A DNA stretch of 64,000 bases from Candidatus Bathyarchaeia archaeon (GTDB lineage Archaea; Thermoproteota; Bathyarchaeia; 40CM-2-53-6). Numbering within the stretch: the stretch's first letter is position 1; the number at the start of each line of letters is the position of its first letter. The DNA lies in NCBI GenBank assembly GCA_050013255.1, contig JBEKFP010000001.1, positions 1,248,001 to 1,312,000 of the forward strand. Direction: 5' to 3'. Shown piece by piece: positions 24,067-25,587 of this stretch. Below the pieces are notes generated by a model. That model had not been told where the DNA came from, did no database searches, and worked only from the letters and a program-made list of their open reading frames with translations. The position numbers were made by a program, and so were the translations under genes.

Positions 24067-24720
24067 ATGGGCGACGAGAAGTTCGAAATCGACCTCGGGA
24101 ATCTTCTCACAAGACTCATCCCTGACAAGAACGGCTCGGCATTCACCAAGCTGGACGCTATCAAGGCGAAGCTGGTTAGGATGCACGATCAGAATCTGGT
24201 GAAAATCAACCACTCGGCTATGGAGATCATCTGTGCTAAGGATTTGATTATGAGGGGATATGATGTCGATGTTGAACATCGCTTGGAAGAATCCCTTGTC
24301 TGCGATCTGCTGGGGATCAAGGGTGACGGTAGGGCTATAGTTGAAATTGAGACGGGGTTCGTACCCCCAGAGCATGCATTGGACCCTACAGCATTTTGTT
24401 CGGCCAAGATTGCCAGCAAGATAGCTAGGTACAGCAAATTCGCTGACAAATTTACCCTAGCTTCGCCGCTCTACCAAATCCTGCCCATCCCCCTAACCTT
24501 CCTGAAACCCCCAAGAGTGAGAGAGCCCGAGGAGGTGAGGGAGACGAAGAGGCTATGCGACCGCTACTACGACAATCCACCCATACCCCTGAACGAGATA
24601 ACCACAGGCAGACTTCACTCGCTCTCCTTCATTGACGTGGACGCAGGAACAGTAAGGGAGGTCGACCCTGAAACCTACGCGGAATCGCTGCTCGGCATGT
24701 GGGATAAGATAAGGCAGTAA
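24067..24720 (+). CDS. Conserved archaeal protein with PD-(D/E)XK-like nuclease fold
   Basis: NHS.ME, GY.V.VE, CDL..K, VEIETG motifs. Confidence 0.65.
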   Translation: MGDEKFEIDLGNLLTRLIPDKNGSAFTKLDAIKAKLVRMHDQNLVKINHSAMEIICAKDLIMRGYDVDVEHRLEESLVCDLLGIKGDGRAIVEIETGFVPPEHALDPTAFCSAKIASKIARYSKFADKFTLASPLYQILPIPLTFLKPPRVREPEEVRETKRLCDRYYDNPPIPLNEITTGRLHSLSFIDVDAGTVREVDPETYAESLLGMWDKIRQ

Positions 24721-24953
24721 GTTGCCGCCCAACTTTCGAGGCAGATGTGGCTTTCCCTTCGCGAGGGACTTTCGACCCTCCCCTCGTCCAACGCCTTGGT
24801 TTTCCCTCACTCGGGCCTCACGGAGTTTCTGCGGTTTCCCGCTAGCGTCGTGACGCTACACCCGAGCGCTCATCGATCCACGTAACGACCCAAGGCAAAC
24901 CCTGGGACGGAAGCCGACCGACGAATCTACCCCTGTCTCGGTTGGGCAGCACC
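24721..24953 (-). ncRNA. Unassigned highly structured RNA candidate (~230 nt)
   Basis: Nested helices: 24723-33/24941-51, 24785-89/24905-09, 24793-99/24890-96, 24810-15/24861-66; GAAA-capped hairpins; mismatches become G.U pairs only on the minus strand. Confidence 0.6.
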
Positions 24954-25587
24954 ATAACATTGTCATCGCAGAGATAAGGGGGTTGCGGCTGGATTCCACA
25001 CGTCAAATGCGTTTTCCAGTGGAACATAGCAAGGTCGGGCTGCTCGCTACCTTCAAAAGGCCAAAACGCCACGACTCGATCAGGGTGCATGAACCATGTC
25101 TAACCCAAACACTCACCATTGCACCAAAAGCTCTCTCACGATGGAATTTTCCTGGGCAAGGTTGCAATGGCTGGGGTTCAAGAGATCCTACCTCATAGGC
25201 GTTGGGAAGGTTTCCTGCGAGAAATGCGGACGGATATTTCCGATCGAGGAAGGCGCTGTTCAAAAGGCCTTGGCGAAAAGGGCGATTGAGTTCAAAGACG
25301 ACCTTCGAAAAATCGCGCTCGAAAACGGAAGTTAGCTTGATTGGGTCGATTAACTCCAGTACCTATGGCCGTTCTAATGTGCCCAAGCTCTCGTTAATGC
25401 TCCTTGCTGGGTCAACACTCAACGCAAGATCATGTGTTGGTAATTTTCATGAGCATGAAACCTTTCGATTATCAACCAGCTGTCTTGCGGTTTTTCGGTT
25501 CAGCAGAACCATGAGCAGGTCTTTGTGAATCTTAATAGTTGAGTTCGCAGTGAGTTAGAGAGTCGCTTTACTTTGGATTGATGATTA

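Follow-up and report, generated by a model that had tools for sequence, protein, structure and literature searches.

A free-standing archaeal gene for a circular RNA with a bulge-helix-bulge junction and a probable partner of the PD-(D/E)XK fold

The window analysed here, a 64,000-nucleotide stretch of the genome of a Candidatus Bathyarchaeia archaeon, contains a region of about 230 nt, directly behind a protein gene, that raises the questions of whether it encodes an RNA, in what form that RNA exists, and whether it belongs with the protein next door. A sequence-only reading had proposed a structured, multi-branch RNA on the minus strand, and strand and structure are both borne out by folding: the minus strand of 24715-24960 reaches z = -4.5, the plus strand z = -2.2. 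The RNA gene is present in a single copy in the genome, and the features of the locus are collected in Table 1. The element had been placed 1 nt from the stop of the convergent protein gene; the adjacency stands, but the strict closing helix lies 2 nt from that stop.

Table 1. Features of the RNA gene and of the neighbouring protein gene (window positions)
Feature	Position	Strand	Basis
PD-(D/E)XK-fold protein, 217 aa, with E53, D80 and E93-x-E95; putative partner	24067..24720	+	Model, fold match, linkage
Precursor RNA, P1 to P1	24723..24951	-	Folding, covariation; T-rich tracts after P1 in homologues
Mature 200-nt circular RNA, class A, four arms (predicted fold)	24735..24934	-	Back-joints in X1, X2, X4 and X6; circular fold
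P1 5' strand, outer processing stem, removed	24941..24951	-	8/9 counted pairs compensatory; RNA cover almost nil
P1 3' strand, removed	24723..24733	-	Covariation and RNA-seq contig cover
BHB 5' half: CGAG central helix strand and ACA bulge; cut before 24934	24934..24940	-	
BHB 3' half: CUCG central helix strand and AAA bulge; cut after 24735	24734..24740	-	
P2 5' strand; partner in the circle 24738-24746	24925..24933	-	Covariation
Arm P3: long hairpin, NNNG tetraloop at 24896-24899	24870..24924	-	
Arm P4: GAAA hairpin 24831-24842; predicted pseudoknot bulge 24847-24850	24808..24868	-	
Arm P5: basal A-rich internal loop, conserved; apical loop 24773-24776 predicted to pair with the P4 bulge	24749..24805	-	
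Degenerate BRE/TATA promoter, ~25 nt upstream of P1	24971..24986	-	Position of the clear BRE-TATA in ~40 homologues

In homologues, a BRE-TATA promoter lies about 25 nt before the outer stem P1 and a T-rich tract follows it, an arrangement that marks the element as a free-standing gene; that the RNA is encoded by such a gene with its own promoter is shown, or nearly so. The weak TATA-like CTTATC that had been noticed in this genome falls in the same place as the clear promoter of the homologues. A 79-aa open reading frame with a CxxC zinc-ribbon-like segment (25096-25335, plus strand) is divergent from the RNA promoter and is common only to the two closest relatives.

The fold was tested on 23 homologous sequences, in terms of the stems P1 and P2 and the three arms P3, P4 and P5. 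This four-armed structure is paired in 89.9% of cells, with slid controls at 33-43%, and 38 of its 58 pairs show two-sided, compensatory changes, a count equalled by no shuffle; the covariation called for by the earlier reading is thus present in the homologues. The bulge of P4 and the apical loop of P5 carry words of 5-7 nt that differ between clades, and cognate pairings reach 14.4 against 12.3 for swapped ones, with 5 of 20000 permutations as good, among sequences that are related by kinship. Comparison of homologues thereby shows, or nearly so, a circle whose four arms would radiate from a single junction and which has a predicted pseudoknot between the P4 bulge and the P5 loop. The fully nested fold drawn earlier survives in part: its closing helix, GGUAGAU/AUCUGCC, CUCGGG/CCCGAG and the hairpin GCGG-GAAA-CCGC covary, but its other five helices (GGCUU/AAGCC, CGUCC/GGACG, GCCUUGG/CCAAGGC, UAGCGU/ACGCUA and GAGGGUC/GUCCCUC) are paired in 62% of cells (39-79% per helix), as against 90% for the four-armed fold, and their compensatory pairs do not exceed those of shuffles (298/500). 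Such pairings can be drawn in this one sequence and are not conserved in homologues. The base of P5 holds a conserved internal loop, GGMAAACC / GGRAAGCC, which we take to resemble the tandem-GA motif of c-di-GMP-I riboswitches; the element has no Rfam match to that class.

Where P1 gives way to P2, the intervening bases make up a canonical bulge-helix-bulge (BHB): its 4-bp central helix, CGAG/CUCG, is flanked by two 3-nt bulges, ACA and AAA, with an outer helix on one side and an inner helix on the other. Pairing in the central helix reaches 98.9% of cells, G-C and A-U pairs replacing each other, and a script detected the BHB in 35 of the 43 homologues of class A, the class to which this RNA belongs. 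A generic scan for the motif is unspecific, finding it in 11 of 40 background windows and 51 times per genome, with this element folding best, and the BHB claims are therefore based on the homologous position of the motif and the junctions described below. A K-turn reading of the basal internal loop was dropped because the BHB geometry and the junctions account for the same invariant bases.

The form in which the RNA exists is indicated by RNA-seq. A small share of the 1.5-kb stretch around the element is contained in 24 runs from 20 studies, and in the four runs that were aligned (X1, X2, X4 and X6, from four studies) contigs cover about 24733-24934 and little else. The discrete transcript anticipated earlier is therefore seen as contigs confined to the element; assembled contigs carry neither strand nor level information, and the RNA strand was assigned from folding, the promoter and the handedness of the BHB. 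In X4, position 24934 is joined to 24736 with one base in between; the joints run from 24928 to 24733 with 4 intervening letters in X6 and from 24915 to 24733 with 18 in X2, the letters in both cases being the homologue's own 5' bases; and a 61-nt record of X1 consists of 24902-24931 followed by 24732-24762, with a bridge of only 30/31 nt. All four are consistent with one junction, 24735|24934 (element positions 218|19); each of these positions is the second base of its bulge, where the splicing endonuclease cuts. Records of 230 nt in X2 and X6 correspond to the 200-nt circle plus an assembly overlap of 30 nt, a length that presumes k = 31. As the genome holds one copy, the back-joint is not explained by a tandem repeat. 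Contig depth rises to 3.8e5 within the circle and is 0-5 outside it, which is a hint only, the runs having been picked by this very sequence; depth of this kind cannot rank genes, and uncovered flanks do not imply silence.

The mature form is a 200-nt circle, as the contig junctions show, with a GNRA loop over the ligation site. In the circle, P2 replaces the central BHB helix and the joined ends make a C-GARA-G tetraloop, with a junction that reads GAG|A or GAA|A in 32 of the 43 class A RNAs; because the central helix yields to P2, both alternative pairings are conserved. The earlier length of about 230 nt thus holds for the precursor but not for the mature RNA, the BHB and the circular form having gone unrecognised.

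The genome encodes EndA (two subunits) and RtcB, and processing of a BHB by these enzymes is an established pathway for tRNA introns, for rRNA and, in Thermoproteus, for a permuted SRP RNA (PMC4731332, PMC7714728, PMC12918454). Given the motif and the presence of these enzymes, we have high confidence that EndA and RtcB produce the circle, and its biogenesis as a BHB-derived circle is hardly in doubt. The reading frame of RtcB extends to 1039 aa (C1:110968-114084) and its Pfam match falls into two parts, apparently on account of an intein in the ligase that would close the circle.

Known RNA families offer no home for the element, which has no match in Rfam 15 at E<=10, in line with the earlier view that it was unassigned. 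SRP RNA, including permuted forms, was rejected for lack of an Rfam SRP match at E<=10 and of any SRP motif such as that of helix 8, and RNase P RNA for lack of an Rfam match and of the CR-I/CR-V P4 pseudoknot; canonical genes of both lie elsewhere in the genome (E 8e-40 and 2e-52, respectively). The sequence-only reading had likewise seen no SRP helix-8 or RNase P CR-I/CR-V motifs. A permuted 5S rRNA is countered by complete 5S genes in this genome and in four other RNA-carrying genomes, and a tRNA intron by the absence of any tRNA found by ARAGORN, the 'exons' being a single stem. The boxes of a C/D box sRNA (C, RUGAUGA; D, CUGA) are absent from the circle and not conserved in the alignment, and the ACA that an H/ACA sRNA would need, which here comes after P5, is just 3 bp away from the internal loop and is missing in one clade. 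A coding circle was rejected, the longest rolling frame on the RNA strand being 54 aa, and a search of the element's own genome for antisense or guide targets gave only matches at chance level, the longest of 15 nt.

The neighbouring 217-aa protein has no match in Pfam, NCBIfam, PADLOC or the defence libraries. Its model (pLDDT 92) is closest in fold to MmcB (3dnx; Z 9.0, rmsd 3.0, 106 aligned), XisH (2okf; 8.8), AF1548 (1y88; 8.3) and NucS (2vld; 6.8), with which it shares the core fold at 9-15% identity, but from which it differs in having E-x-E instead of (D/E)xK and an additional N-terminal helical hairpin. E53, D80, E93, E95, K118, R121 and Y122 are invariant in orthologues. The core alpha/beta fold of the model and its acidic residues place the protein in the PD-(D/E)XK superfamily, as a predicted nuclease. 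Modelling also supports a homodimer, predicted with a score of 0.82 against 0.22 for the best control, at least 94% agreement in contacts between runs and a pLDDT of 90, a mark attained by 20 of 30 solved pairs and by 1 of 23 monomers.

The protein occurs in 131 of 301 Thermoproteota genomes, as one gene in 129 of the 131, and is absent from the viral contigs searched. Orthologues include Ngar_c13990 of Nitrososphaera gargensis and those of the Nitrosopumilaceae, with APE_1113 of Aeropyrum as a distant one. Neighbouring genes (helicases, Tsr3, PAC2, GIY-YIG, 3HCDH) vary by lineage and indicate no pathway, and the recurrent neighbours include neither a reverse transcriptase nor a transposase. 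Side observations in the family comprise a lone 456-aa fusion of the nuclease-fold protein with a phosphoribosyltransferase domain (P0215; PF00156), an SNF2 helicase with a LAGLIDADG intein adjoining a Nitrosopumilus orthologue (L258:5754-8639), and a small GC-richer gap behind Nitrosopumilus-type orthologues, which has the look of a Cys-rich mini-ORF and not of an RNA.

Whether RNA and protein belong together was addressed through their distribution. BLAST in 60 relatives returned six full-length RNA homologues, each directly behind an orthologue of the protein gene and with other flanking genes that differ; the set was then widened with metagenome and genome loci. Class A RNAs adjoin the protein gene in three orientations (convergent, tandem and divergent) in Bathyarchaeia, in Nitrososphaeraceae and related Nitrososphaerales, in hot-spring lineages of the Geocrenenecus and Calditenuaceae type and in one genome labelled Brockarchaeota, and can also be unlinked to it within a genome, where they number up to three. 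The RNA is near-invariant among close relatives, and its distribution at genus level is patchy (5/22).

Many other orthologues, at some 40 or more loci, are instead accompanied by a divergent upstream RNA of a second class, B, which is rod-shaped, carries a BHB in 23 of 24 cases and is predicted to give circles of 106-141 nt closed by a cUUAGg loop; the two classes have no common sequence outside the BHB region. In a genome with four class B copies, two of the circles are 98% identical although their P1 stems differ, which argues that selection acts on the circle, the P1 stem serving for processing alone. Unlinked class B genes are present at four loci of the complete genome G212 and at two of G236, and in some of them, of about 235 nt, an arm is duplicated. 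On visual inspection, the 12-nt loop at the tip of each arm could pair with a 6-nt bulge further downstream, with a compensatory change from CGGC/GCCG to AGAC/GUCU, suggesting a kissing interaction that may be intra- or intermolecular. A third type was noted in family f33 (L206:3631-3828, on the gene's strand), downstream of the orthologue, as a very GC-rich BHB-closed rod with a predicted circle of about 153 nt that neither RNA model matches.

Across 61 order-level genomes, 18 have the protein, accompanied by class A in seven, class B in ten and neither in one, so that either RNA is present in 17 of the 18 protein-bearing genomes versus 1 of the 43 protein-less ones; the sole exception is a class B RNA situated 136 nt from a contig end. 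In the phylum sample, the protein is present in all 21 class B genomes, and no genome was found in which both classes score convincingly. Mapped on the protein tree, the two RNA classes form clusters, with 15 changes against 62.5 when shuffled, on a quick tree in which kin are not independent. Orthologues of the Nitrosopumilaceae and Sulfolobales show neither class with models R1 and R2. The expectation that homologues would be found near orthologues of the protein gene is matched by this tight linkage and co-occurrence, and a functional link between RNA and protein appears likely, with binding as a putative part of it. The proposal of a novel RNA that is possibly the partner of the protein is thus supported by Rfam, covariation, contigs and linkage, the partnership being putative.

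In the mechanism that we propose, the free-standing gene would give a precursor of about 230 nt whose ends fold into a BHB; the tRNA-splicing endonuclease would cut both bulges and RtcB join the inner ends, yielding the 200-nt circle; and the circle would refold into four arms around one junction, with the GNRA loop at the ligation site and the P4-P5 pseudoknot. It may then bind the dimeric PD-(D/E)XK protein encoded next door and, in what is the least certain step, serve as a decoy or regulator that has no ends, resists nucleases and fills the duplex-binding cleft, and so stores or titrates the nuclease. This decoy or regulator role is the reading that we favour, albeit tentatively and at somewhat less than an even chance. 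It is suggested by two unlike RNA shapes serving one protein family, the lack of a variable guide segment, the three to four RNA copies in some genomes and the retention of the protein where no RNA is found; the orthologues of Nitrosopumilaceae and Sulfolobales without detectable RNA, however, also fit independence, and a pseudoknot and conserved internal loops exceed the needs of a simple decoy.

The circle may instead be a required part of a new ribonucleoprotein nuclease, as its scaffold or specificity subunit, positioning the substrate or tethering factors for the dimer, for which RNase P/MRP and the Ro60-Y RNA are models. A compact tertiary fold with pseudoknot and invariant loops, the invariant active-site and basic residues of the protein, and a protein that is nearly always single-copy and conserved over a phylum all speak for such a role; whole families with the protein but no detectable RNA, the interchange of rod and cruciform RNAs, and complementarity to other genomic loci that is not above chance (longest 15 nt) make it unlikely, though a serious contender. 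Less probable again is an RNA with its own job, binding a ligand, metal or protein, for which the nuclease would be the dedicated opener or turnover enzyme of an end-less circle: the RNA hardly ever occurs without the protein, the protein occurs without the RNA, and enzymes that cut RNA, CdiA-CT for one, are known among PD-(D/E)XK folds, but lineages in which no RNA is found retain the protein and two unrelated RNA folds would require a common site.

A real circle that lies near the gene for reasons of history or co-regulation, and does not physically contact the protein, would accord with the unlinked RNAs of several genomes, but is rendered improbable by adjacency in three orientations and by two RNA classes, and by joint absence in 42 of the 43 protein-negative genomes. 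Type III toxin-antitoxin systems were rejected on the grounds of variable orientation, the lack of a repeat array and the occurrence of the protein without detectable RNA, and a viroid-like replicon on the absence of a self-cleaving ribozyme match. Least credible is a selfish element, a circular RNA of the viroid or retrozyme kind that has a copy in the genome and is mobilised with the nuclease. The patchiness within the genus, the differing flanking genes and the multi-copy RNA genes might suggest it, but against it stand the one protein gene in nearly all positive genomes, its absence from viral contigs, the lack of a ribozyme match, recurrent neighbours without reverse transcriptase or transposase, and copies that retain promoter and circle while P1 drifts.

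Whichever role applies, this is a real and apparently undescribed family of circular non-coding RNAs with a probable protein partner. It seems rather more plausible than otherwise that the pair forms a phylum-wide archaeal ribonucleoprotein, spanning Bathyarchaeia, soil ammonia oxidisers and hot-spring Thermoproteota, in which a dedicated gene without linear counterpart would borrow the tRNA-splicing machinery to make a circular RNA, cruciform or rod, as the partner that programmes or controls a PD-(D/E)XK dimer. A search of Rfam 15 and of an open-access library found no description of a gene dedicated to a circular RNA of its own fold, nor of such an RNA together with a restriction-fold protein, known archaeal BHB circles being introns, rRNA forms and permuted familiar RNAs. 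The host lineages are globally abundant soil and sediment archaea, and the presence of the protein in Nitrososphaera gargensis means that the system may be testable in cultured Nitrososphaera. The system provides a first handle on a conserved, unannotated protein family of Thermoproteota, and implies that a circular contig in a metatranscriptome, where it has no ribozyme, can be a housekeeping RNA encoded on a chromosome.

Structured RNAs that bind protein by shape include 6S RNA, CsrB, type III antitoxins and the Ro60-Y RNA. The present RNA has no sequence or Rfam likeness to these and differs in being circular, with a restriction-endonuclease-fold dimer as its putative partner. An OMEGA identity was rejected on the PD-(D/E)XK partner, the single copy and the absence of a variable guide in an RNA that hardly varies among close relatives. 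The circular omega-RNAs of IS200/IS605 elements (PMC12558985) are likewise circular structured RNAs linked to an archaeal nuclease gene; they, however, have no BHB, guide the RuvC-type TnpB and belong to multi-copy IS elements, whereas here a BHB, a PD-(D/E)XK fold, a single copy and no guide segment are found. Like the circular C/D guide RNAs from tRNA-Trp introns and other BHB-excised introns (PMC12558985, PMC7714728), the circle is released at a BHB and is possibly functional, but it has no host tRNA, rRNA or mRNA, its 'exons' are an 11-bp stem and it lacks C/D boxes. Circular archaeal 23S rRNA (PMC12918454) shares the BHB junction and a ligation that gives a GNRA-capped helix, whereas the present RNA is of 200 nt, non-ribosomal and of new fold. 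Closest in biogenesis is the permuted circular SRP RNA of Thermoproteus tenax, in which leader and trailer form a BHB and the splicing endonuclease and RtcB produce a stable circle (Plagens et al. 2015, PMC4731332): both are made from a free-standing gene with a BHB formed by leader and trailer, but that RNA is the only SRP RNA of its cell, whereas here the canonical SRP RNA is encoded separately and the circle has no known linear counterpart.
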